Source: an uncultured Bacilli bacterium
Lineage (GTDB): Bacteria > Bacillota_I > Bacilli_A > RF39 > UBA660
Assembly: GCA_963931515.1 (NCBI GenBank)
Contig: OZ007022.1
Coordinates: 1,408,327 to 1,472,326 of the forward strand
Length of the DNA: 64,000 nucleotides
Reading direction: 5' to 3'
The notes below the pieces were generated by a model. That model saw only the letters and a program-made list of their open reading frames with translations, ran no database searches and had not been told where the DNA came from. The position numbers and the translations under genes were made by a program. Positions 4,586-60,725 of the stretch are shown here, piece by piece; positions within the stretch are counted from its first letter, which is position 1; each line of letters opens with the position of its first letter.

Positions 4586-5461
<876 letters not shown>

Positions 5462-9775: not shown

Positions 9776-10646
9776 GTGTGTCATTATTGGTGGTGGTCCG
9801 GCTGGTATGAATGCGGCTTTGTATTTGAAAAGGGCAGGTCTTGATGTTGTTATTATCGAGAAGGATGTTCCTGGTGGTGAAATGCTTAAGACAAATAAGA
9901 TAGAAAATTATTTGGGCTTTTCGGAAATTGATGGTGGTGAGCTTGCTTTAAAGATGAGCAAGCAGGTTAAAGATTTAGGTGTGACAATAATTAAAGATAA
10001 GGTTTTGAATGTAAGTAAAAAAGATAGATTTGAAATTGAAATGGAAAAGGATTCTATTAGTGCAGATTATGTGATAGTAGCAACTGGGAGAACACCTAGA
10101 AAATTGAATCTTGATGGTGAAGATAAACTTTTAAATAGGGGAATTAGTTATTGTGCAATTTGTGATGGTGCATTTTACCGTGGTCTAGATGTGGCTGTTG
10201 TTGGTGGAGGCGATAGTGCTTTAACTGAAGCTTTATATTTAGCTGATTTATGTAACAAAGTATATGTACTTGTACGTAAAGATTTAAGAGCTAATGAGAT
10301 TTTACAAAATAGAGTTAAAAATAAGGATAATATTGTGGTTATGAAAAATGTTCAGGTAAGCAGGCTTGGCTACGATGATAAGTTATCTAATATTGTTTTG
10401 GATAATGGAGAAAATATTACTTTAAATGGTTTATTTGTGGCAATAGGTGGAGTGCCTGAATTAGGATTTTTAAAGGACTTAGATATAGATATGCAAAATG
10501 GTTATATTAAAACTGATGATAGAATGGAGAGTAATATTAAGGGGTTATATGCGGTTGGTGATGTTAGATATAAAGATTTTTATCAAATTATTACGGCCGC
10601 TAGTGATGGTGCGGTGGCTGCACTTAGTATTAGAGAGGATGTTTAA
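9768..10646 (+). CDS. trxB: thioredoxin-disulfide reductase
   Basis: Contains the FAD motif GGGPAG, the redox CxxC (CAICDG) and the NADPH motif GGGDSA. Confidence 0.92.
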   Translation: MSKCVIIGGGPAGMNAALYLKRAGLDVVIIEKDVPGGEMLKTNKIENYLGFSEIDGGELALKMSKQVKDLGVTIIKDKVLNVSKKDRFEIEMEKDSISADYVIVATGRTPRKLNLDGEDKLLNRGISYCAICDGAFYRGLDVAVVGGGDSALTEALYLADLCNKVYVLVRKDLRANEILQNRVKNKDNIVVMKNVQVSRLGYDDKLSNIVLDNGENITLNGLFVAIGGVPELGFLKDLDIDMQNGYIKTDDRMESNIKGLYAVGDVRYKDFYQIITAASDGAVAALSIREDV

Positions 10647-11590
10647 TGATGAAAGTGGCAGTTTTAGGTGGAGGAACTGGTATGAGTCAGTTGCTTCGAG
10701 GACTTAAGAAGTTACCTTTTGATATTTCGGCGATTGTATCGGTGTGTGATGATGGTAGTAGTACTGGTAGACTTAGGGAAGAATTTCATACACCGGCGGT
10801 TGGTGATATTAGAAAAGTTTTAATTAGTTTGTCTGAAAATGAGGAAGAAATAAAGAAGTTATTTGATTATAGATTTAATACATCAAGTGATTTGGATGGT
10901 CATGCACTTGGAAATTTACTTTTAACTGGTGCGGCTGAAATTACTGGTAATGTATCTGATGGAATTGAACTTGTAAATTCACTTTTGAAGTTAAAAGGTA
11001 AGGTTATTCCCCTCACAGAGGATGATGTTACTTTGATGGGAAAGATGGCAAGTGGTAATGTAGTTATGGGCGAACACCTTATTACGGAATATGACGATAG
11101 GATAAAAGAGGTATATTATAAAAAAACACCAGAAGTTAATCCTGATGTTTTGAAAGCTATTCGAGAGGCGGATGCAATTATACTTAGTATGGGAAGTTTG
11201 TTTACGAGTATTATTCCTAATTTGCTTTGCCGTGAAGTTAAAAAAGAAATTGACAAGAGTAAGGCTAAAATTATTTATGTTTGTAATATTATGACGCAGC
11301 CTGGTGAAACAGATAATTTTACTGTTGGTGACCATGTGAAACTTTTAAATAAATATTTAGGTAAAAGAAAAATCGATGCGGTTATTTTAAATAATGGTGA
11401 GATTGATTCTAATATTGTTAAAAATTACGAAACTACAGAGCAAAAAGATTTGGTTAAGGCCAATTATGATGTTTTGAATAAGATGAATGTTCAAGTAATT
11501 GAAAATGATTATATTATGATTGAAAATGGAATGATTAGGCATAATACGCTTAGAGTAGCAATTGATATTCTTTCATATTTGCTTGATTAG
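10646..11590 (+). CDS. yvcK: gluconeogenesis factor YvcK (CofD-like, UPF0052)
   Basis: N-terminal VLGGGTGMSQLLRGLK. The yvcK-whiA synteny is conserved. Confidence 0.9.
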   Translation: MMKVAVLGGGTGMSQLLRGLKKLPFDISAIVSVCDDGSSTGRLREEFHTPAVGDIRKVLISLSENEEEIKKLFDYRFNTSSDLDGHALGNLLLTGAAEITGNVSDGIELVNSLLKLKGKVIPLTEDDVTLMGKMASGNVVMGEHLITEYDDRIKEVYYKKTPEVNPDVLKAIREADAIILSMGSLFTSIIPNLLCREVKKEIDKSKAKIIYVCNIMTQPGETDNFTVGDHVKLLNKYLGKRKIDAVILNNGEIDSNIVKNYETTEQKDLVKANYDVLNKMNVQVIENDYIMIENGMIRHNTLRVAIDILSYLLD

Positions 11591-11600
11591 AGGTGATTGT

Positions 11601-12515
11601 ATGTCATTTACGGCGACAGTTAAGGATGAGGTTAGTAAATTAGATATACCAGAGACGGAAAAAATTTCAGAACTTTCGGCTATTGTTCGGAATGGAGAAT
11701 ATGGTGATGACATAAGGATTGTGACTGAGAATAATGCGGTGGCAAGGCTTATTTATTCGTTATTTAAAGATTTATTTAATGTGTATCCTAAAGTAAGTGT
11801 TAAAAGGGGATATAATTATAATAAAAATATGCTTTATACTTTGGAAGTTAGGCGAAAAGTTTCGGATATTTTGAAAAGTTTGGGTATTTTTAATGATGTT
11901 CCTGAAGATTTTATATATGCGGATGAAGATTTATTGATGGCTTATTTAAAAGGTTTGTTTTTGATGAAAGCTAGTGTGAATGACCCAAAGACATCTAGAT
12001 ATCATTTGGAGTTTAATTTGGATACTTTGGAGTATGCAGAGTTTGTTCAAAAATGTTTAAATCATTTTAATCTAAATAGTAAAATTTTACATAGGGAACA
12101 TAGATATGTTGTTTATATTAAAGAAGCTGAAAAAATTGGTGATTTTTTAAGGATAATAGGTGCGGTTAAAGCGGTACTTTATTTTGAAGATATCCGTATT
12201 TATAGAGACCATAAGAATATGACTAATAGACTTAATAATTGTGAACAAGCAAATGTCGATAAGATTATTGAGACGGCTAATGATCAGGTTAAGGATATAG
12301 AGTTTTTGAAGCAAATGGATGTTTATGATTTACTAAGTGACAAAGAGAAAGAGGTTTCTTTTTATAGAGTTAAATATCCAGAGGCTTCACTTGTGGAATT
12401 AAGTGAGATAATAAGCGTGGAAACAGGTAATAAAATTACCAAATCAGGTGTATATCATCGACTTAACAAAATTAGACAGTTGGCTTTAAAGATGAAGGAA
12501 AAATCAGAAAATTAA
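11601..12515 (+). CDS. whiA: DNA-binding protein WhiA
   Basis: ATG 11601 follows AGGTGA. The gene sits in the usual position after yvcK and is about 305 aa. It has a C-terminal HTH (KSGVYHRLNKIRQLA). Confidence 0.9.
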   Translation: MSFTATVKDEVSKLDIPETEKISELSAIVRNGEYGDDIRIVTENNAVARLIYSLFKDLFNVYPKVSVKRGYNYNKNMLYTLEVRRKVSDILKSLGIFNDVPEDFIYADEDLLMAYLKGLFLMKASVNDPKTSRYHLEFNLDTLEYAEFVQKCLNHFNLNSKILHREHRYVVYIKEAEKIGDFLRIIGAVKAVLYFEDIRIYRDHKNMTNRLNNCEQANVDKIIETANDQVKDIEFLKQMDVYDLLSDKEKEVSFYRVKYPEASLVELSEIISVETGNKITKSGVYHRLNKIRQLALKMKEKSEN

Positions 12516-12541
12516 AAGTTTTTTGATTTTTTTATTTGGAT

Positions 12542-12580
12542 AAAAAGGAAATTTGATTTTTACGTCGTATGTTTATATAT
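12542..12580 (+). promoter_or_regulatory. conserved upstream box, copy 1 (AAAAAGGAAAT..GATTT.TACGTCGTATGTTTATATAT)
   Basis: Nearly identical to 13524-13562. It is promoter-like (TTGATT ... TATAT) and lies about 25 nt upstream of the Rpn gene RBS. Confidence 0.55.
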
Positions 12581-12603
12581 GAAGGGGCTTAGAAAGGAGA
12601 TAT

Positions 12604-13500
12604 ATGAATATAACTAAAGAATATTATAAAAAATTAGACCAAGAAATGACTTTAATTCCCTTAAGTTATGATAGAGCTTTTAAAAGTGTGTTTAAAATAA
12701 ATTTAGATATTTTAAAAGACTTTTTAAAAGTAACTATTCCTACCAATATAAACGATAACGATAGTATAAATCTTTTAGATGGTGAAATACCTGTTACTAG
12801 TAAAAATGAATATAAAAGAACCGTCGATATTCTAGTCGTCATTAATAATAGAATATACATTGATGTCGAGATGAATAAAAGTAAATTTGAATATGTATCT
12901 GACCGTAACTTTTCATATGGAGATATAATATCTACAAGAGTTATTGAAAAAGGCGAAGATATCAATAATTTAAAATATAAGTATGTATATCAGCTTAATT
13001 TAAACGAAAGTCCCTATGAAGATGTTTTGGAAGATGATATAGTTTTATATGGATTAAAGACTCATAAGATATATAATTCAAATAGGCATACATTAACTAA
13101 ATCACTTGAACTTTATAGAAATTTATATTACAATGAAGGTGATAGAAGTAAAGAGGTAATATGGTATACAATGTTTACAGCGAGAACATTTACAGAGTTA
13201 TATGAACTAGCTAGACAAGTATTAGATGAAGATAAAGTAGAAAAGTTAATGGAGGCGGTTATTGATATGAGTAAAGATGGATTTATGATTCATGAGTGGC
13301 AGAAAGAGAAGATGGATGCTTTAGTTAAATTAAATGAGATGGAGGGAGCTAAAGAAGAAGGCAAAAACCTTGGAATCGAAGAAAGAACAATAGAAATAGC
13401 TAAAAACATGCTTAAAGAAAAAATTGATGAAGATGTTATTTCTAGAGTAACTGGTCTAACTATCCAAGATATTCAAACATTAGAAAATACTGAAAATTAA
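12604..13500 (+). CDS. Rpn family recombination-promoting nuclease / PD-(D/E)XK putative transposase
   Basis: N-terminal SYDRAFKSVF. A nuclease-core-like D...IDVEMNK segment is present. The C-terminal HTH-like tail (IEIAKNMLKEKIDEDVISRVTGLTIQDIQ) is typical of the PDDEXK_2/Rpn family. Confidence 0.75.
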   Translation: MNITKEYYKKLDQEMTLIPLSYDRAFKSVFKINLDILKDFLKVTIPTNINDNDSINLLDGEIPVTSKNEYKRTVDILVVINNRIYIDVEMNKSKFEYVSDRNFSYGDIISTRVIEKGEDINNLKYKYVYQLNLNESPYEDVLEDDIVLYGLKTHKIYNSNRHTLTKSLELYRNLYYNEGDRSKEVIWYTMFTARTFTELYELARQVLDEDKVEKLMEAVIDMSKDGFMIHEWQKEKMDALVKLNEMEGAKEEGKNLGIEERTIEIAKNMLKEKIDEDVISRVTGLTIQDIQTLENTEN

Positions 13501-13599: not shown

Positions 13600-14391
13600 A
13601 TGACTAATAGAGAATATTGTAAATTGTTAGACAAGAATTATGGTGTTGTTCCGATGACTGATGAGTATAGTTTTGAAGAAGTGTTCATGTTGGTTCCAGA
13701 TATTTTAAATAAGTTTTTATCTGATGTAATTGGAGTAAAACTACCAAAAAATCATGATATTAAAATAGCGACTGATGAAGTACTTAAGGATTATCGGTAT
13801 AAAAATTATGATTTTAATATGCACTTGGTTTTAGATTATAATGTTTTTATTGATACTAAATTAGATGAAAATATTTTAAATGAAAAGGATTTTATAGATA
13901 AGCTTAATAAATTTAAAATTTACGGAGAACCTGTGGGAAAGGATTTTATTTATAATGATGATTATACTGACCGTATTTTATATTGGACGACTATGAAAGC
14001 AAAGCCAGATACGGTTGTTGATGTTACATCTATTAAGTATACTAAATATTATAGATATTTATATTATGAAAAAGGAGTTAGAGATAAAGATGTTATTTGG
14101 CTTACGGCTTTAACAGCTGAATCATATTCAGAACTTTATGAATTATTACGTCAAGTTCTTTCTGAAAAAGAAATTGATAAAATGATTAGTTGCGTTAAAT
14201 TTATGAGTCTTGATGAGTATACTGAGTGCATGGAAAATAAGAGTCAAGTTAAAAAGTTTAGAACAGAAAGAAATGTAAAAACGGAAATTGTGAGAAATAT
14301 GCTTAAGGAAAACATTGATATAGATACTATAGTTAAAATTACTGGTCTAACTAAAGAAATTGTTATTAAAATTAAAGATGCTGAAGGATAA
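13600..14391 (+). CDS. Rpn/PDDEXK_2-like paralog with degenerate nuclease core
   Basis: Shares the architecture and C-terminal tail (VRNMLKENIDIDTIVKITGLTKEIV) with the upstream gene. The E-x-K position instead reads FIDTKLDE. Confidence 0.65.
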   Translation: MTNREYCKLLDKNYGVVPMTDEYSFEEVFMLVPDILNKFLSDVIGVKLPKNHDIKIATDEVLKDYRYKNYDFNMHLVLDYNVFIDTKLDENILNEKDFIDKLNKFKIYGEPVGKDFIYNDDYTDRILYWTTMKAKPDTVVDVTSIKYTKYYRYLYYEKGVRDKDVIWLTALTAESYSELYELLRQVLSEKEIDKMISCVKFMSLDEYTECMENKSQVKKFRTERNVKTEIVRNMLKENIDIDTIVKITGLTKEIVIKIKDAEG

Positions 14392-14402: not shown

Positions 14403-14639
14403 TTAAATGTCTTTTCTAGTTAAATCATTTGCTTTAAATTTATCTTTAGTTTTTTTATTAATGAAATATATTTCATAATCACATTTGTTAGCAATTTGTT
14501 CAATTGTATCAAATGAGATGATTCTTTGTTCGTTTTCATAACGCGAAAGATTTTGCTGGGAAATACCAACGTCTTTGGCTAATACATCTTGCTTTAATTT
14601 TTTTGTTTTTCTCATATATTTTAATGCTTTTCCTATCAT
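14403..14639 (-). CDS. XRE-family HTH transcriptional regulator
   Basis: 78 aa with a Cro/C1 HTH (LKQDVLAKDVGISQQNLSRYENEQR). Divergent from the surface-protein gene. Confidence 0.85.
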   Translation of the reverse strand: MIGKALKYMRKTKKLKQDVLAKDVGISQQNLSRYENEQRIISFDTIEQIANKCDYEIYFINKKTKDKFKANDLTRKDI

Positions 14640-14766: not shown

Positions 14767-15696
14767 ATGAAAGAGAAAAAGAACAAATATATCAAGACAA
14801 ATATAATAGGCTTTGTAATAGCAATGGTAATAGTAAGTGGCTTTGGAGTATACGCTGCAGTTACATTTCCAAGTAGCGATGTAACATATGAAAATGGGAC
14901 AAGTGGTTTAGAATCAACTAGTGTTCAAGGTGCCATAGATGAGCTTTATACAGAATGTACCAAAGAGCCAACTGCAGGAAATCAAATATTAGATAAAGTA
15001 GACTTGGAAAAAGATCCATATGAGTGTAGATATTTCTTTACAGGAGCAAATCCAAATAATTATGTAAGTTTTAATAATGAGTTATGGAGAATAATAGGAG
15101 TAATAGATGGAAAAATAAAAATAGTAAGGAATGAAAGTATAGGAAATATGCAATGGAATTCATCCAGCTCAAATAATTGGAATAATGCTTCATTAAAAAC
15201 ATATTTAAATGGAGAATACTATAACAGTATCGAAGCTACTTCAAAAAATATGATATCAGCAGAAACGTATTATTTAGGTGGTCCGACTTCAAGCAATTAC
15301 CAAACGTTAACAGCAAGCGGTTATTACAATGCTGAAAGAGATAGCAGCCAAGTATATAGTGGCAATCCAACAAGCACAACACAAAATATAGGCTTAATGT
15401 ATCCAAGTGACTATGGATATGCGGCAGGAAGTAGTTGCCTATCAACAGCACTTTATAAATATAGTTCTAGTTGCAAAAATAGTGATTATTTATCAATTGG
15501 ACTAAACGAATGGTTACAGGCTCCTTTTGCCAGTTATGGTTCCAGTGCGGCCTATCTGAACGGTCCTGGTGGCGTCCGCTACGGCGATTCCGTGGCCGGC
15601 TCCTTTGCGGTCCGCCCAGTCTTATATCTAAACTCCAATGTTCAAATTACTGGTGGAGATGGCAGTCAAAGTAATCCATTTAAACTTTCTTTATAA
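14767..15696 (+). CDS. membrane-anchored surface protein, DUF6273/DUF1566-like lectin-type C-terminus (paralog A)
   Basis: The RBS is GGAGAAG. An N-terminal TM anchor is followed by the conserved YENGTSG..VQGAIDELY box. The C-terminal W...AVRP motif is followed by ITGGDGS. Paralogous to 24916-25854. Confidence 0.8.
   Translation: MKEKKNKYIKTNIIGFVIAMVIVSGFGVYAAVTFPSSDVTYENGTSGLESTSVQGAIDELYTECTKEPTAGNQILDKVDLEKDPYECRYFFTGANPNNYVSFNNELWRIIGVIDGKIKIVRNESIGNMQWNSSSSNNWNNASLKTYLNGEYYNSIEATSKNMISAETYYLGGPTSSNYQTLTASGYYNAERDSSQVYSGNPTSTTQNIGLMYPSDYGYAAGSSCLSTALYKYSSSCKNSDYLSIGLNEWLQAPFASYGSSAAYLNGPGGVRYGDSVAGSFAVRPVLYLNSNVQITGGDGSQSNPFKLSL
15541..15621 (+). other. GC-rich, A-poor, NNC-codon patch (candidate hypervariable region) in paralog A
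   Basis: By manual count, 55/81 nt are G+C, only 7 nt are A, and 15 of 27 codons end in C. The surrounding genome is about 30% GC. Confidence 0.6.
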
Positions 15697-15703
15697 AATA
15701 TTT

Positions 15704-15734
15704 AACTTGAAATAATTTTGTTTCAAGTTTTATT
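15704..15734 (+). terminator. rho-independent terminator
   Basis: AACTTGAAA (15704-15712) pairs with TTTCAAGTT (15721-15729), followed by TTATT. Confidence 0.75.
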
Positions 15735-24915: not shown

Positions 24916-25854
24916 ATGAAAGAAAAAATAAAGAAAATAGTGTTAGGATATTTGCCAGGTTTTATAACAGGAATAATAGTATTTGGAGGAGTAAGTGTAA
25001 TAGCGGCGACGTATTTTCCGTCTAATCAAGTGACGTATGAAAATGGGACAAGTGGAATGCAGGCGACTGATGTTCAAGGAGCGATAGATGAACTTTATAA
25101 TGTTTGTTTTCCACCAAAAACAGGTGGAGATGCAATTTTAGATAATACTGATATAGTAACATCAGGTGATGGCCTTTACGCCGATGAATATGAAGAAGGA
25201 AAATATACATATAAAGGAGCCAATCCCAATAATTATGTAACCTTTAATAATGAGGAAGCAGGCTGGAGAATCATATCCATAAATTCAGATGGAACAATAA
25301 AGATAATGAGGGATGCAAGTATAGGAAATATTGCATGGGACACATCAATTTCAAATAATTGGAACCGTCCTGCAACTTTAAATACTTATTTGAATGGTAA
25401 TTATTATAATAGTTTAAGTAGTACTGCTCAAAGTCAAATAGTAGAGGGAACATATTATGCGGGTGGAGTAAATTATTATAATAATGATATACAAGATCAA
25501 ATAAGTGATGAAAAAGTAAGGACATCAAAAGTAAAAGTAGCCTTACCAACATTAAGTGAATATATAAGAGCCAATTCAAATAAAGAACAGTGTGGAACAT
25601 TTAGTTTAAATAATAATAATTATAGTACATGTAAAAATTCAGATTGGATGTATTATTCTAGCGATTATTGGTGGACCTTGTCGCCTCGTTCTGACGGCTC
25701 TAGCTCCTTGTTCTACGTGAGCAGCGATGGCTACGTCAACAGCAGCCATGCGGCCGATTCAGGCGATGCAGTCAGGCCCGCTATAACTCTTTCTTCTGAA
25801 GTCCAAATCACGGGAGGTATAGGAACAGCGTCAGATCCATATATTTTGAGTTAA
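24916..25854 (+). CDS. membrane-anchored surface protein, DUF6273/DUF1566-like lectin-type C-terminus (paralog B)
   Basis: ATG 24916 follows GGAGAGG. It has the same architecture as 14767-15696: a TM anchor, YENGTSG..VQGAIDELY, WRII, YWWTLSP...AVRP and ITGGIGT. Confidence 0.8.
   Translation: MKEKIKKIVLGYLPGFITGIIVFGGVSVIAATYFPSNQVTYENGTSGMQATDVQGAIDELYNVCFPPKTGGDAILDNTDIVTSGDGLYADEYEEGKYTYKGANPNNYVTFNNEEAGWRIISINSDGTIKIMRDASIGNIAWDTSISNNWNRPATLNTYLNGNYYNSLSSTAQSQIVEGTYYAGGVNYYNNDIQDQISDEKVRTSKVKVALPTLSEYIRANSNKEQCGTFSLNNNNYSTCKNSDWMYYSSDYWWTLSPRSDGSSSLFYVSSDGYVNSSHAADSGDAVRPAITLSSEVQITGGIGTASDPYILS
25673..25783 (+). other. GC-rich, A-poor, NNC-codon patch (candidate hypervariable region) in paralog B
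   Basis: Manual count over 108 nt gives about 60% GC and 18 A. 19 of 36 codons end in C. It is in the same structural position and has the same length as the patch in paralog A. Confidence 0.6.
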
Positions 25855-29826: not shown

Positions 29827-29933
29827 ACTTTGAGGGTTTATTCTTTTGTGTTTATATATAATTATTTTTGTGTAGATTAGTTTTAAAATTTTATTTATTA
29901 TGATAGAATGTAATAAAGATTTTGGGTGAGAGA

Positions 29934-32096
29934 ATGAGTAAAGTAAAGTATTTTTTTGATAAGGTTTATTCAAAATTTAAAATAGGTTGTATTGTTATTT
30001 TGTTTATTTTTTTTGGAATACCTTTTATTTTTGGTTTTATTGGTTCTTTGTTTGAGTCTTTGAATGAGGAAGAAAAAATTTCTTTAGCAGATGGATTTAC
30101 TATTGAAAAATATAATGTAATTTTAGATGTTAAAGAAGATAATAAGGTTGATGTTACTGAAAATTTAACTGTTAATTTTACAAGTGCATATAAACATGGT
30201 ATTTATAAATATACGCCTGAGTGGCTAGAATATAAAGGTAAGGATGGTAAAGTTATAAAAAGAAAGTCTAATGTTTTAGATTATAGGGCGGATAATGATA
30301 TTTATACTGTGGATAGAGTTAATAAGAAAGCTAGGATAAAAATTGGTGATGCGAATGAGTATGTCAGTAAGGGTGAAAAAACTTATGTAATTAAATATAC
30401 TTATGATATGGGTAAAGATCCATTTAATGGGTTTGATGAGTTTATTTTTCATGCTTATGGAGATTACTGGGGAACGGAGATTAAGAATGCTTCTATAGAG
30501 GTAAATATGCCTAAAAGTATAGAAGGGTATAATGTTAACTTTTTTACTGATAAATATCGAGATGAAAATGTGAATGAAGCGGTTGATTTTTCTATAGATG
30601 GTAACACTTTAAAGGCTAATTTTAATGAAAATAAAAATTATGAACTTCAGTTAAAAAAATATTGTGAGAAACATTATAAACAATATGGTGAAGAGTGTGA
30701 TTATTCTGATTTTGAATATGATTATGAACCGCTTTCTAAATCACTTACGGTTGATGTTGAATTACCTGAAGGATATTTTAAAGGTGGAAGTTATAATTAT
30801 GGTTTTGGTTCAATATTTATTTCTATTTTGGTTTTTATTGTAACGGGTTATACGATTTATAAGTGGTTTAAATTTGGAAAAAATTATGCGAAGAATGTTC
30901 AGACGGTTGAATTTTATCCTCCTGAGGGTCTTAGTTCGGCAGAGATTGGATATGTTTATAATAAAAGACAAGCTAATAAGAAATTAACTATTTCACTTAT
31001 TGTTCAGTTAGCTAGTAAAGGATATATTAAAATAGATGAGATTAAAGATGATATTAAAATAACTAATTTGATGATTAAACCTAAAAAAATAGGATCGTTT
31101 GACGACATGTTACCTAAACGGGAGATAGAAGTTAAAAAAATAAAAGAAGCTGATGATAAATTAAGCAGATCAGAGACGACGATGATGGTTCATTTGTTTA
31201 AAAAAGGTGATGTTAAGAAATTAAAAACGAATATTAATAGATTTTTAAAGGTTAAAGATAGTTTAGTTAATGGTGGATATATTGAGGTTATTAGTGATAA
31301 TGAGGAAGAAAGATTAAAAGATATTAAGCAAAAAAGAAAAGCATATGATGATAGTGTTAAAAATTATGATAAACAAATGACAGAGTATAATGAAAAAATC
31401 TCTAAGATGCCGGAAATTAGTGTGTTTGAGAAAATTGTTTATGATAGGCTATTTAATTCTAAGGATGAAATCATTTTAAGTAAACACAAAACATTTTATA
31501 GGGCTTTTAGTGAGGTTGAAAAAACACTAAAAGATAATTTTAAAGATAAGGTTTACGATAAGACATCTAGTAAACAAAGGTTTTATGCTATAGCAAGGAC
31601 ATTACTTATTTTGATATTATGTATTATATCTTATAAAGTTATAGAAGATATGGATCCAAAGTTTAGTATTTTATATTATTTATCATTTGGGTGTATTTTA
31701 GTTAATATATTATTTACTACTTTGATGGGTAGAAAGACAAAATATGGTGAGATGATAAGTGCTAAAGTAATGGGATTTAGGGAGTTTTTGGTGACAGCGG
31801 AAAAATCTAAGTTAGAACAGTTGGTTTCTGAGAATCCTTATTATTTTTACAATATTTTGCCATATACTTATGTTTTAAATATTTCTAAGAAGTGGATTCA
31901 AAAGTTTGAAAATATTAAAATACCGGAAATGGATATGGGTAATTTTGATTATGGTAGTGACAATTTTTTCTATTCTATATATGATCATGTTTATTATCCG
32001 CCAAGTTCTTCTGGCTCTTCTAGTTCATCATGCGGTGGTGGCTGTTCATCATGTGGTGGTGGATGCTCTTCTTGTGGAGGCGGAGGGTCTTGGTAA
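29934..32096 (+). CDS. DUF2207 domain membrane protein with Ser/Cys/Gly-repeat C-terminal tail
   Basis: ATG 29934 follows GGGTGAGAG. It has an N-terminal TM helix, an extracellular domain and several C-terminal TM helices. The tail reads SSSGSSSSSCGGGCSSCGGGCSSCGGGGSW. Confidence 0.8.
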   Translation: MSKVKYFFDKVYSKFKIGCIVILFIFFGIPFIFGFIGSLFESLNEEEKISLADGFTIEKYNVILDVKEDNKVDVTENLTVNFTSAYKHGIYKYTPEWLEYKGKDGKVIKRKSNVLDYRADNDIYTVDRVNKKARIKIGDANEYVSKGEKTYVIKYTYDMGKDPFNGFDEFIFHAYGDYWGTEIKNASIEVNMPKSIEGYNVNFFTDKYRDENVNEAVDFSIDGNTLKANFNENKNYELQLKKYCEKHYKQYGEECDYSDFEYDYEPLSKSLTVDVELPEGYFKGGSYNYGFGSIFISILVFIVTGYTIYKWFKFGKNYAKNVQTVEFYPPEGLSSAEIGYVYNKRQANKKLTISLIVQLASKGYIKIDEIKDDIKITNLMIKPKKIGSFDDMLPKREIEVKKIKEADDKLSRSETTMMVHLFKKGDVKKLKTNINRFLKVKDSLVNGGYIEVISDNEEERLKDIKQKRKAYDDSVKNYDKQMTEYNEKISKMPEISVFEKIVYDRLFNSKDEIILSKHKTFYRAFSEVEKTLKDNFKDKVYDKTSSKQRFYAIARTLLILILCIISYKVIEDMDPKFSILYYLSFGCILVNILFTTLMGRKTKYGEMISAKVMGFREFLVTAEKSKLEQLVSENPYYFYNILPYTYVLNISKKWIQKFENIKIPEMDMGNFDYGSDNFFYSIYDHVYYPPSSSGSSSSSCGGGCSSCGGGCSSCGGGGSW
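32025..32087 (+). repeat. three tandem 21-nt units encoding SSCGGGC
   Basis: The units are TCATCATGCGGTGGTGGCTGT, TCATCATGTGGTGGTGGATGC and TCTTCTTGTGGAGGCGGAGGG. The GG-rich codons double as SD-like sequences for the overlapping rSAM ORF. Confidence 0.85.
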
Positions 32097-59116: not shown

Positions 59117-59473
59117 ATGGCTTATAGAAAATTAGGACGCGACAACAAACATAGAAGAAGTATGCTAGCTAATTTAACTAAAGATGTTATCAACAATGAA
59201 AAAATAGTTACTACTGAAACTAGAGCTAAAGAAGTTCGTAAGTTTGTCGATAAAATGATTTCTTATGGTAAAGATGGCTCTTTAGTTGCTAGAAGAAAAG
59301 CTTTAGCTTTCTTACACAATGATAAAGCTACAGTTAAAAAAGTATTTGATGATTTAGCTGTAAGATACGCTAAAAGAAATGGCGGATATACTAGAATTTC
59401 TAAAATTGATGAAAGAAGAGGAGACGACGCTTTAATGGTTGTTTTATCTCTTGTAGAAGGGGATGCTGAATAG
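59117..59473 (+). CDS. rplQ: 50S ribosomal protein L17
   Basis: N-terminus [20 protein letters not shown]. It is the last gene of the alpha operon. Confidence 0.97.
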
Positions 59474-59519
59474 GCATTCTTTTTTTTATATACTAGGAAT
59501 TTGCTTTGTAAAAAAAATG

Positions 59520-59548
59520 TTTACAAGAACAAATGTTTGTGATATACT
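59520..59548 (+). promoter_or_regulatory. tnpB promoter
   Basis: TTTACA (59520-25), a 17-nt spacer, then TATACT (59543-48). Confidence 0.55.
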
Positions 59549-59576
59549 GAATACACCAAAGATTGAAGGTGATGAT

Positions 59577-60725
59577 ATGAAAATACTAAAAGGCTATGTA
59601 TTTAGAATGTATCCAACTGAAAAGCAAGAAGAGTTAATTAATAAAACTATTGGATGCTCTAGGTTTGTATATAATTATTTTTTGGATGATAAAATTAAAG
59701 AATATAAAAAAACTGGAAAAAGTAAAAGTGTATATGATCAAATAAAATTAATTCCATCACTTTCAAAAGAATATCCGTTTTTGAAAGAAGTAGATAGTTG
59801 CGCTTTAAGAACAAGTCTATTTAATTTAGAAGATGCTTATAAAAGATTTTTTAATGGAAACGGTTATCCTAGATTTAAAGCAAAAGGCGTTCATGAAAGT
59901 TATAAAACTAATAATATTAAAAGTAGTTATAAAGGTAATAATTATAACAGCATAAAACTAGATTTAAAAAATAAAACAATAACTTTACCAAAATTAAAAG
60001 AAGTAAAGATAAGAGGATATAGAAATAAAAATATTATACCTGGTGAGTTAAAAAGTGCAGCAGTTAAGAAAGATGCCGGTAAATATTATGTAAGTGTCTT
60101 AACCAACGAAGAATTAATAAGGCCATCATTTGTACCAACAAGTATAATCGGTATAGATTTAGGAATAAAAGATTTAATAGTAACATCATTTAATGAAAAG
60201 ATAGAAAACAAAATAAAACTAAATACAAAAAGAATGGTAGGTTTACAAAAAGGAATATCTAGATGTAAGTCTGGAAGTAAAAATAGATATAAGATGAAAC
60301 TAAAAATCCAAAGATTGTATCAAAAAATAAGAAATGCAAGAAAACATATGATACATGATATAACAAATAAACTAATAAACGAAAATGACATTATAGTAAC
60401 TGAGAATTTAGATGTAAAAAGTATGCAGAAAAATCACTATGTAGCTAAAGGCTTAAATGAAAACCCAATATCAGAAATCATCAGAGTACTTAAATATAAA
60501 GCTAACTGGAATAATAAGAGATTAATACAAATAGATAGATATTATCCAAGCTGTCAGATATGCAGTATATGTGATTATCAAAATAAAGAAGTAAAAGATT
60601 TGAAGTTAAGGAAATGGGAATGTCCAGTATGTCATACAAAGCACACTCGTGATTATAATGCAGCAGTTAATATAATGTTTAAAGGTTTAGAAAAATATAT
60701 GTTATATCTAGATCAATCTATCTAA
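59577..60725 (+). CDS. tnpB: IS605 OrfB-type RNA-guided endonuclease TnpB
   Basis: ATG 59577 follows GAAGGTGA. The N-terminus is KGYVFRMYPTEKQEELINKTIGCSRFVYN. The RuvC motifs are IGIDLGIKDL, VTENL and DYNAAVNI. The Zn finger is CQICSIC...CPVCH. Confidence 0.9.
   Translation: MKILKGYVFRMYPTEKQEELINKTIGCSRFVYNYFLDDKIKEYKKTGKSKSVYDQIKLIPSLSKEYPFLKEVDSCALRTSLFNLEDAYKRFFNGNGYPRFKAKGVHESYKTNNIKSSYKGNNYNSIKLDLKNKTITLPKLKEVKIRGYRNKNIIPGELKSAAVKKDAGKYYVSVLTNEELIRPSFVPTSIIGIDLGIKDLIVTSFNEKIENKIKLNTKRMVGLQKGISRCKSGSKNRYKMKLKIQRLYQKIRNARKHMIHDITNKLINENDIIVTENLDVKSMQKNHYVAKGLNENPISEIIRVLKYKANWNNKRLIQIDRYYPSCQICSICDYQNKEVKDLKLRKWECPVCHTKHTRDYNAAVNIMFKGLEKYMLYLDQSI

Follow-up and report, generated by a model that had tools for sequence, protein, structure and literature searches.

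Diversity-generating retroelements (DGRs) with targets far from the element have been described in cells, among them the Treponema denticola DGR with its seven remote targets and the 'Lineage 4' cellular DGRs (Wu et al. 2018, PMC5758913). DUF6273 proteins are known as DGR targets from gut phages, where they comprise the tentaclins and Mtd-like targets of nd4/nd12 (PMC10743442), proteins of the Faecalibacterium prophages Lelie, Roos and Pioen (PMC11792537) and a target in Toutatisvirus (bioRxiv 10.1101/2024.10.15.618418). These targets were reported to be C-type-lectin-like (PMC10743442, PMC11792537, bioRxiv 10.1101/2024.10.15.618418), and in the Faecalibacterium prophage and Toutatisvirus proteins the variable region (VR) is at the DUF6273 C-terminus (PMC11792537, bioRxiv 10.1101/2024.10.15.618418). 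Here we analysed a 64-kb stretch of the chromosome of an uncultured Bacilli bacterium (the window), in which a DUF6273 gene, termed gene A, carries a GC-rich patch near its 3′ end. We found that a DGR cassette with its own DUF6273 target is present on the same contig, and that the patch is almost certainly a genuine DGR-made VR in a paralog that belongs to the target family of the cassette without adjoining it.

The variable region of gene A and the template repeat

The patch had been flagged by eye in a preliminary description, and its composition was reproduced exactly on recounting. Positions 15541-15621 hold 55 G+C among 81 nucleotides (67.9%; A7 C29 G26 T19), and 15 of the 27 codons end in C. 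As described earlier, the patch is bounded by W249 (15511) and the AVRP motif (15607-15618), and AT-rich composition resumes past GTCCGCCCAGTC. The GC content is 62% over 15511-15621, compared with 36% for gene A and ~29% for the window, and the 81-mer with the highest GC content in the 64 kb is 15537-15617, equalled by one in a collagen-repeat gene (5029-5109). When codon positions were compared, G+C at third positions (GC3) was 0.59 in the patch and 0.20 in the remainder of gene A, with third-position A at 0.00 and 0.44, respectively, indicating that the composition of the patch is not due to amino-acid content alone.

The preliminary description had proposed a candidate DGR variable region and had seen no reverse transcriptase (RT), avd gene or template repeat (TR) in the window. 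None was found in the 64-kb window by a Y/F-x-DD scan of long open reading frames (ORFs) or by an A-degenerate VR scan of both strands, and tblastn of the window with the RT, Avd, ORF97 and ORF116 of the cassette described below gave no match. All three components were found outside it. The cassette was located via the neighbourhood of two proteins, P0012 and P0153, mates in a 90% cluster that differ only in the VR. It shares the contig of gene A but is on the other strand, ~91 kb from the gene A VR. The 98-nt TR of the cassette, hereafter TR0 or the resident TR, was aligned with gene A, and the results revealed that the gene A VR differs at 21 of the 28 template adenines and at 11 of the 70 non-adenines (odds ratio 16, Fisher p = 4e-8). 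The replaced adenines had become G (11), T (8) or C (2). The TR is built with AAC/AAT codons and lacks third-position A altogether. It contains 48% GC and 29% A, with 67% G+C at its non-A positions; the gene A VR contains 8% A and 64% GC. The A-poor GC island in gene A is thus accounted for by the replacement of adenines in a template whose other positions are GC-rich.

The findings above were extended by comparing nucleotide sequences of the VRs of gene A and four paralogs of the same or a near-identical genome. The flanks of the five VRs were nearly identical; inside them, first and second codon positions varied, most third positions were fixed, and the invariant positions were C, G or T with a single A, which is the pattern expected from adenine-specific mutagenesis of an AAC/AAT-rich template. 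At the protein level, an alignment of 25 family members showed high conservation except between EWLQAP and AVRP, a stretch in which invariant and hypervariable columns alternate (S.SS.AA.L.S.G.V.....V..S.AVRP). The variable columns of 86 equal-length homologues contained N, Y, D, S, G, F, H, R, T, A, I, V, L, C and P, with K, E, Q, M and W almost absent, a spectrum that points to the repertoire of NNC/NNT codons.

We considered whether such a patch could have arisen with no retroelement, either as a Gly/Ala/Ser/Pro-rich surface loop under diversifying selection or as a biased or horizontally acquired segment. G, A, S and V are indeed frequent among the residues encoded by the patch, and the remaining GC peaks of the window are Gly/Pro/Ala or Cys/Gly/Ser low-complexity coding sequence. 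However, a 98-nt template whose variable positions are A adjoins an Avd/RT pair in the same genome, the variation falls on first and second codon positions while third positions are fixed and never A, the invariant VR positions are almost never A, and an amino-acid spectrum of NNC/NNT codons only is foreign to ordinary selection. A non-retroelement origin is thus extremely improbable, being effectively refuted by the TR/VR relation at the cassette and in gene A.

The patch had also been placed in a module likened to DUF1566/DUF6273 C-type-lectin-like domains. The domain was identified with Pfam DUF6273 (PF19789; E 5e-6, 26.9 bits against a gathering score of 23.5), which matched residues 123-289 of gene A over model positions 10-171 of 172. 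A predicted structure (AlphaFold 2) had moderate confidence (pLDDT 60); the sole significant solved match found for it by Foldseek was PDB 9qa6 (E 4.5e-5), its best viral matches were phage DUF6273 proteins, and no classical C-type-lectin entry was among the structural matches of this model. DUF6273 structures were therefore recovered, and the statement that gene A has a lectin fold rests on the literature cited above.

The DGR cassette and turnover of its adjacent target

The cassette was found at locus L012 (ENA ERZ21549403 tig00014406, 540171-561106), whose contig is also that of the window (L001 corresponds to window position 4767), with gene A at ~640,290 and the TR at ~549,650-549,747. 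It is placed between ychF and rpsF-ssb-rpsR, and its order is DUF6273 target, ORF97, TR, ORF116, bAvd and RT (Table 1). In addition to its Pfam match, the Avd matched NF033474 DivGenRetAVD (E 4e-13), under the curated cutoff of that model. The best solved-structure match of the RT was 8ub7_A (E 9e-25), labelled 'Reverse transcriptase', with an alignment spanning IGGLSSQ and YMDD; we take 8ub7 to be the RT of the Bordetella phage DGR. ORF97 and ORF116 flank the TR and are both retained in three of the four cassette lineages, only ORF116 being intact in L015, and are candidate DGR accessory genes. A phage origin of the cassette was rejected, since the same synteny (ychF / rpsF-ssb-rpsR) in three lineages argues for chromosomal inheritance; the flanks differ in L019, the fourth cassette lineage. 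In the 10.9 kb inspected at one distant phage DUF6273 locus (L006), no RT was found.

We then compared the cassette-adjacent VRs with their own templates. In L012, the adjacent VR (10763-10860) differed from the TR at 16 adenines and one non-adenine, and in L014 at 17 adenines and no non-adenine. Over 9913-13500, these two samples differed from each other at 14 positions, all of them in the VR. The adjacent VRs of L017, L018 and L019 showed 13-19 adenine and no non-adenine differences from their own TRs, and the comparison of L017 with L018 revealed that the adjacent VR differs between samples in a related lineage too. The same was seen in protein clusters, where differences inside and outside the VR numbered 13:0 (P0018/P0430), 4:0 (P0018/P0431) and ~10:0 (P0012/P0153), the last pair being identical over 311 residues bar ~10 patch positions. 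Collectively, these data demonstrate that the DGR is active on its cassette-adjacent target.

Two cassettes of other lineages had additional features. In L015 (RT 88% identical), three tyrosine-recombinase genes are present between target and avd (L015 1779-5024); the insertion deletes 24 nt from the 5′ end of the TR, and only 267 aa of the adjacent target are left, so that this cassette, judging by its sequence, is possibly crippled. In L019, a 763-aa protein with Listeria-Bacteroides repeats and a DUF6273 domain is encoded directly upstream of the active target (L019 1349-3640). When the VR of this protein was compared with three TRs, 10-13 non-adenine mismatches were counted (10 with its own TR), and it is apparently a decayed VR beside a live cassette.

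Gene A as a frozen duplicate or a live target

Our preferred reading is that the VR of gene A was made by a DGR and is probably no longer rewritten. In the mechanism proposed, the RT would copy TR RNA and misincorporate opposite template adenines, and the mutagenised cDNA would then overwrite the VR up to a GC-rich boundary, the initiation of mutagenic homing (IMH) site. Gene A would be a dispersed duplicate from the target family of the cassette, and its VR would have been written from a TR1-type template, either an earlier version or a foreign one. The gene would now be frozen, not being overwritten by the resident TR, and would represent one fixed surface ligand-binding variant among the paralogs of this genome.

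The first line of evidence came from the non-adenine positions. The preliminary description had expected mismatches to be restricted to template adenines, and with the resident TR this did not hold cleanly. The 11 non-adenine mismatches to the resident TR all fall in one central segment, while the first 32 nt and the last 29 nt of the VR differ from that TR at adenines only. The framework of the central segment is common to the VRs of L003, L009 and L011, indicating that it is a template framework and not a set of random RT errors. With the TR of L019, whose RT is 81% identical, five non-adenine mismatches were left. Remote VRs in general have 5-13 such mismatches to every known TR, compared with 0-1 between cassette-adjacent VRs and their own TR. 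The 11 mismatches would not have survived full-length homing from the resident TR.

Furthermore, the five paralog VRs could be split into two classes by their fixed positions, predicting more than one TR version. The TR core predicted from the remote VRs of the gene A class, GTC AAC AAC AAC AAT TCC GTG ACC AAC TCC, was later found in L011, a locus of a metagenome-assembled genome (MAG) whose barely mutated VR has this core as its unmutated 3′ half. The TR of L019 carries it as well. Among GTDB representative genomes, the strict predicted-template pattern had no match, and a relaxed framework pattern recovered one further VR (L011) and no template. Exact patterns of the predicted template gave no match in IMG/VR and none in JGI metagenomes.

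The second line of evidence was the lack of turnover. Clusters of non-cassette paralogs showed 0-2 changes in the VR compared with 1-16 elsewhere in the protein, and the gene A VR was identical in all six contigs and two fragments that carry it (P0122, P0124). Additional purifying selection on the frozen VRs was not significant, with two changes inside and 39 outside in the pooled data (p = 0.12).

The third line of evidence concerned the sequence downstream of the VR. A 30-nt GC hairpin, GTCCCCTGTAAGGCGAAGTCTTACGGGGAC, follows the cassette-adjacent targets of L012, L015, L017 and L019 with 30/30 identity, although the intergenic DNA around it is only ~92% identical. It is positioned ~88 nt past the VR, after the stop codon, and the RNA fold of 64 nt around it had an energy of -23 kcal/mol. 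The hairpin is absent from the 64-kb window, where gene A is followed by an AT-rich terminator. After the remote paralog of L003, it is decayed by two substitutions and stands in 193 nt of cassette-downstream DNA retained at 90.7% identity, indicating that segmental duplication of the adjacent target gave rise to at least some paralogs. In the Bordetella and Legionella DGRs, efficient homing requires a GC inverted repeat beyond the IMH, on its downstream side (PMC5758913).

We weighed these results against the alternative that gene A is a live remote target, into which the resident Avd and RT still retrohome (15520-15617) with the resident TR or a second TR1-type template. An active DGR is present on the same chromosome, the adenine bias of the VR differences is very strong, non-phage DGRs are known to have targets at distances above 100 kb, and multiple non-A-to-N differences are seen in some accepted targets (PMC5758913). 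Gene A also retains the IMH-type boundary of the active target. Its GCGGTCCGCCC is found at 15607-15617, and from 15618 onwards gene A has AGTCTTATATCTAAAC where the TR continues with AGCTTCTTAAAAA; compared with L012 (10850-10880 and 11446-11470), the boundary of the active adjacent VR is that of gene A bar one base, A/T, right after GCGGTCCGCCC. On its sequence, the divergence of gene A and TR at this boundary is as in the IMH/IMH* pair of described DGRs. On the other hand, a live target is at odds with the non-adenine mismatches, which full-length homing would erase and which three other remote VRs have in common as a template framework, with the lack of the conserved hairpin, and with a VR that is identical in every assembly, the examined remote paralogs being static while adjacent targets turn over. 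Moreover, a single RT came from this genome among ten RT clusters inspected (>=71% identity to the query), one member being on the 1.52-Mb contig, and TR1-type sequences were found neither in the window and the loci scanned nor, by exact patterns, in GTDB representatives, IMG/VR or JGI metagenomes; the TR scans covered the window, the fetched loci and databases, which is less than the whole genome. On balance we consider a live target improbable. Thus, of the remote target suggested in the preliminary description, a non-adjacent DGR-made VR stands, and a live target of the DGR of this genome is unsupported.

Several points nevertheless weigh against a frozen VR. Gene A has an intact IMH-like boundary, almost the same as in the active target, and because all differences between the resident TR and the two ends of the VR are at adenines there is room for partial rewriting of its 3′ end by the resident element, with which the sequences are compatible. 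The term 'static' rests on few assemblies, many of them from one study, in which the gene A copies were all identical. A second TR1-type template or a distant RT elsewhere in the 1.52-Mb genome would make gene A live. The absence of the hairpin is suggestive and not decisive, since GC inverted repeats were found for 34% of the surveyed DGRs (PMC5758913). The usual rule for assigning a non-adjacent target is A-to-N differences only, with minor exceptions, and published surveys still accept some targets that have as many as 11 non-A-to-N differences (PMC5758913). Compared with the resident TR, the gene A VR exceeds the A-to-N-only rule with its 11 non-adenine mismatches, despite the strong adenine bias.

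Another explanation is that gene A, or its 3′ end, was recombined in from a related strain with a TR1-type template and has been kept as a fixed allele. To this end, the site of gene A was compared with that of a sister lineage (L021, L022 and L028), in which the Xre-type helix-turn-helix (HTH) neighbour is kept at the syntenic site and the DHH orthologue is 96% identical. Here, gene A occupies the slot between the HTH gene and DHH-rplI-dnaB, which in the sister lineage is taken by a distant, quite different 322-aa DUF6273-like gene, and the sister lineage therefore offers no orthologous VR to compare with that of gene A. The HTH / DHH-rplI-dnaB site looks like a replacement hotspot, and gene A may have arrived by gene replacement. 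An import is also favoured by the best-matching known template, which belongs to a different lineage (L019), by mosaic paralog flanks, as in L009 where a class-2-like upstream flank is joined to a class-1 VR, and by the Rpn-family nuclease genes and insertion sequence (IS) elements that adjoin paralogs. Nonetheless, the class-1 framework is present in three paralogs here and in L011 (a MAG with a DHH orthologue of 96% identity), which an ancestral template explains equally well; the L019 TR still leaves five non-adenine mismatches, and no donor was identified. An import is therefore unlikely, if by no means far-fetched, and a frozen duplicate remains our preferred reading.

As a wider and more tentative possibility, which we would not call probable, the family may diversify, duplicate and freeze: the adjacent DUF6273 gene would be rewritten and successful variants copied elsewhere, where they escape rewriting, possibly with the help of neighbouring Rpn-family nucleases or IS elements. 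If this were true, the paralogs would form an archive of fixed binding specificities, and their non-adenine frameworks would record successive TR versions, a molecular stratigraphy of TR evolution.

Paralogs, neighbouring genes and comparison with known systems

Table 1. Coordinates of gene A, its variable region, neighbouring features and the DGR cassette (window positions unless a locus is named)
Feature	Location	Strand	Description
Gene A	14767-15696	+	ORF, 309 aa; N-terminal hydrophobic anchor (residues ~12-32); DUF6273 domain
Variable region (VR)	15520-15617	+	98 nt, gapless alignment to TR0; A-to-N differences 15526-15605
Central VR segment	15552-15588	+	All 11 non-adenine mismatches to TR0; 'class 1 / TR1-type' framework
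IMH-like 3′ boundary	15607-15635	+	GC-rich GCGGTCCGCCC common with TR, then VR-specific AGTCTTATATCTAAAC
AT-rich stem-loop and T-run	15704-15733	+	Read as plain terminator; occupies hairpin site of active targets
DUF6273 cassette-adjacent target	L012 10001-10936		
ORF97 (97 aa)	L012 11046-11339		No significant family match
Template repeat (TR0), 98 nt	L012 11360-11457		
ORF116 (116 aa)	L012 11711-12061		No significant family match
bAvd	L012 12054-12392		PF22296 43.2 bits, gathering score 40
Reverse transcriptase (RT), DGR type	L012 12373-13374		Pfam RVT_1 E 5e-20
GC hairpin GTCCCCTGTAAGGCGAAGTCTTACGGGGAC copies	L012 10948-10977; L015 1223; L017 4553; L019 4608; L003 10949		
Xre-type HTH gene	14403-14639	-	Pfam HTH_3 E 4e-13; divergent, upstream of gene A
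Paralog B	24916-25854	+	DUF6273, 42% identical to gene A (tblastn); Pfam E 2e-12, 47.8 bits
Rpn-family genes	12604-13500 and 13600-14391; L002 8995-9885; L007 12458-13300; L021 1-288		TIGR01784 E 1.5e-16 for first

More than 6,700 homologues of gene A are detectable, several of them on the same 1.52-Mb contig, and the source genome has at least 12 DUF6273 paralogs, gene A included. Gene A, P0001, P0003, P0007, P0009, P0054, P0109, P0130, P0140, P0153 and paralog B were placed on the NCBI contig of 1,520,450 bp. Paralog B, the second copy in the window, has an NNC-rich VR-like patch of its own (~25692-25790), with a framework unrelated to the resident TR. Comparison with a second B-type copy (L002 14500-15435) revealed differences at first and second codon positions together with an indel of one codon, and no template for paralog B was found in any fetched locus. 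The patch implies, at the level of sequence, a second template behind it, which has possibly been lost.

Several of the paralogs are accompanied by genes associated with recombination or transposition. Rpn-family genes (PDDEXK_2 / HTH_Rpn_C), which encode a recombination-promoting nuclease or putative transposase, adjoin several DUF6273 paralogs and might be involved in their dispersal or exchange. At the syntenic slot of gene A, the L021 copy of the DUF6273-like gene is preceded by an IS200-type Y1 transposase gene. In L009, the 5′ end of the paralog adjoins IS200 (Y1) and IS91 (Y2) transposase genes, and the region beside the paralog (L009 1-3000) has no called genes and short ORFs only; by its appearance, this region of ~3 kb may be a 23S rRNA gene. 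A TnpB / IS605 OrfB-type gene with OrfB_IS605, HTH_OrfB_IS605 and Cas12f1-like TNB domains was found in the window at 59463-60725.

The other GC-rich sequences of the window were assigned to coding regions as well. The collagen-repeat gene (4586-5410, minus strand) encodes a protein of collagen triple-helix repeats that has a weakly C1q/BclA-C-like C-terminus and resembles exosporium BclA; the other top GC peak stems from the GPT/GAT repeats of this gene. A peak at 32013-32093 results from the Ser/Gly/Cys-rich tail (SSSCGGGCSSCGGGCSSCGGGGSW) of a DUF2207 membrane protein (29922-32096). No tRNAs were found in the window as a source of GC peaks, and a tRNA or rRNA origin was dropped, the peaks being collagen-like and Cys/Gly-rich coding sequence.

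A compositional anomaly noticed by eye had correctly flagged a DGR target 91 kb from the retroelement, suggesting that A-poor, NNC-rich GC islands in AT-rich genomes are a usable signature of DGR targets. The locus provides a case of a DGR that is chromosomal and vertically inherited, in a Bacilli lineage that is uncultured and has a small genome with sporulation genes, and of a surface DUF6273 family expanded to a dozen copies, for which the cited DUF6273 literature (PMC10743442, PMC11792537, bioRxiv 10.1101/2024.10.15.618418) discusses phage DGR targets only. Remote targets, non-A-to-N differences and DUF6273 scaffolds have already been described, and no current view is overturned. The most interesting aspect is the presence of one live target together with many static copies of different template 'vintages', a contrast that bears on how DGRs recognise targets in trans and on the fixation of DGR-generated diversity.

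Among solved structures, the N-terminal DUF6273 domain of the Thomasclavelia ramosa IgA peptidase (PDB 9qa6; PMC12402451) was the match of the gene A model, and it likewise comes from a Bacilli-class gut bacterium. Unlike gene A, it is fused to an M64 peptidase, and no VR or DGR was reported for it (PMC12402451). The phage DUF6273 targets have the same Pfam domain as gene A, whose VR is C-terminal as in most of them. In contrast to these tail or head-decoration proteins, gene A is cellular and membrane-anchored in a housekeeping neighbourhood, and its family has been expanded to at least 12 chromosomal copies.

The cassette shares with the Mtd/Brt/Avd system of Bordetella phage BPP-1 an Avd partner, the IMH logic and a downstream GC hairpin. 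The BPP-1 RT is the closest solved relative of the cassette RT only if 8ub7 is the RT of that phage. The two systems differ in the target scaffold, which is DUF6273 here and Mtd in BPP-1, in the position of the TR, here between target and avd, and in the hairpin, which is ~88 nt past the VR and after the stop codon here whereas that of the prototype is described as downstream of the IMH.

The closest resemblance in overall design is to the remote-target DGRs (PMC5758913). In both, a chromosomal, non-phage cassette comprises target, TR, Avd and RT, an AAC/AAT-rich TR directs A-to-N mutagenesis up to a GC-rich IMH, the active target has a GC inverted repeat behind it, and paralogous targets are scattered over the genome. 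Unlike in those systems, only the cassette-adjacent target of this genome has clean A-only differences and turnover, and the remote copies appear static, with framework classes that resemble older or foreign templates.

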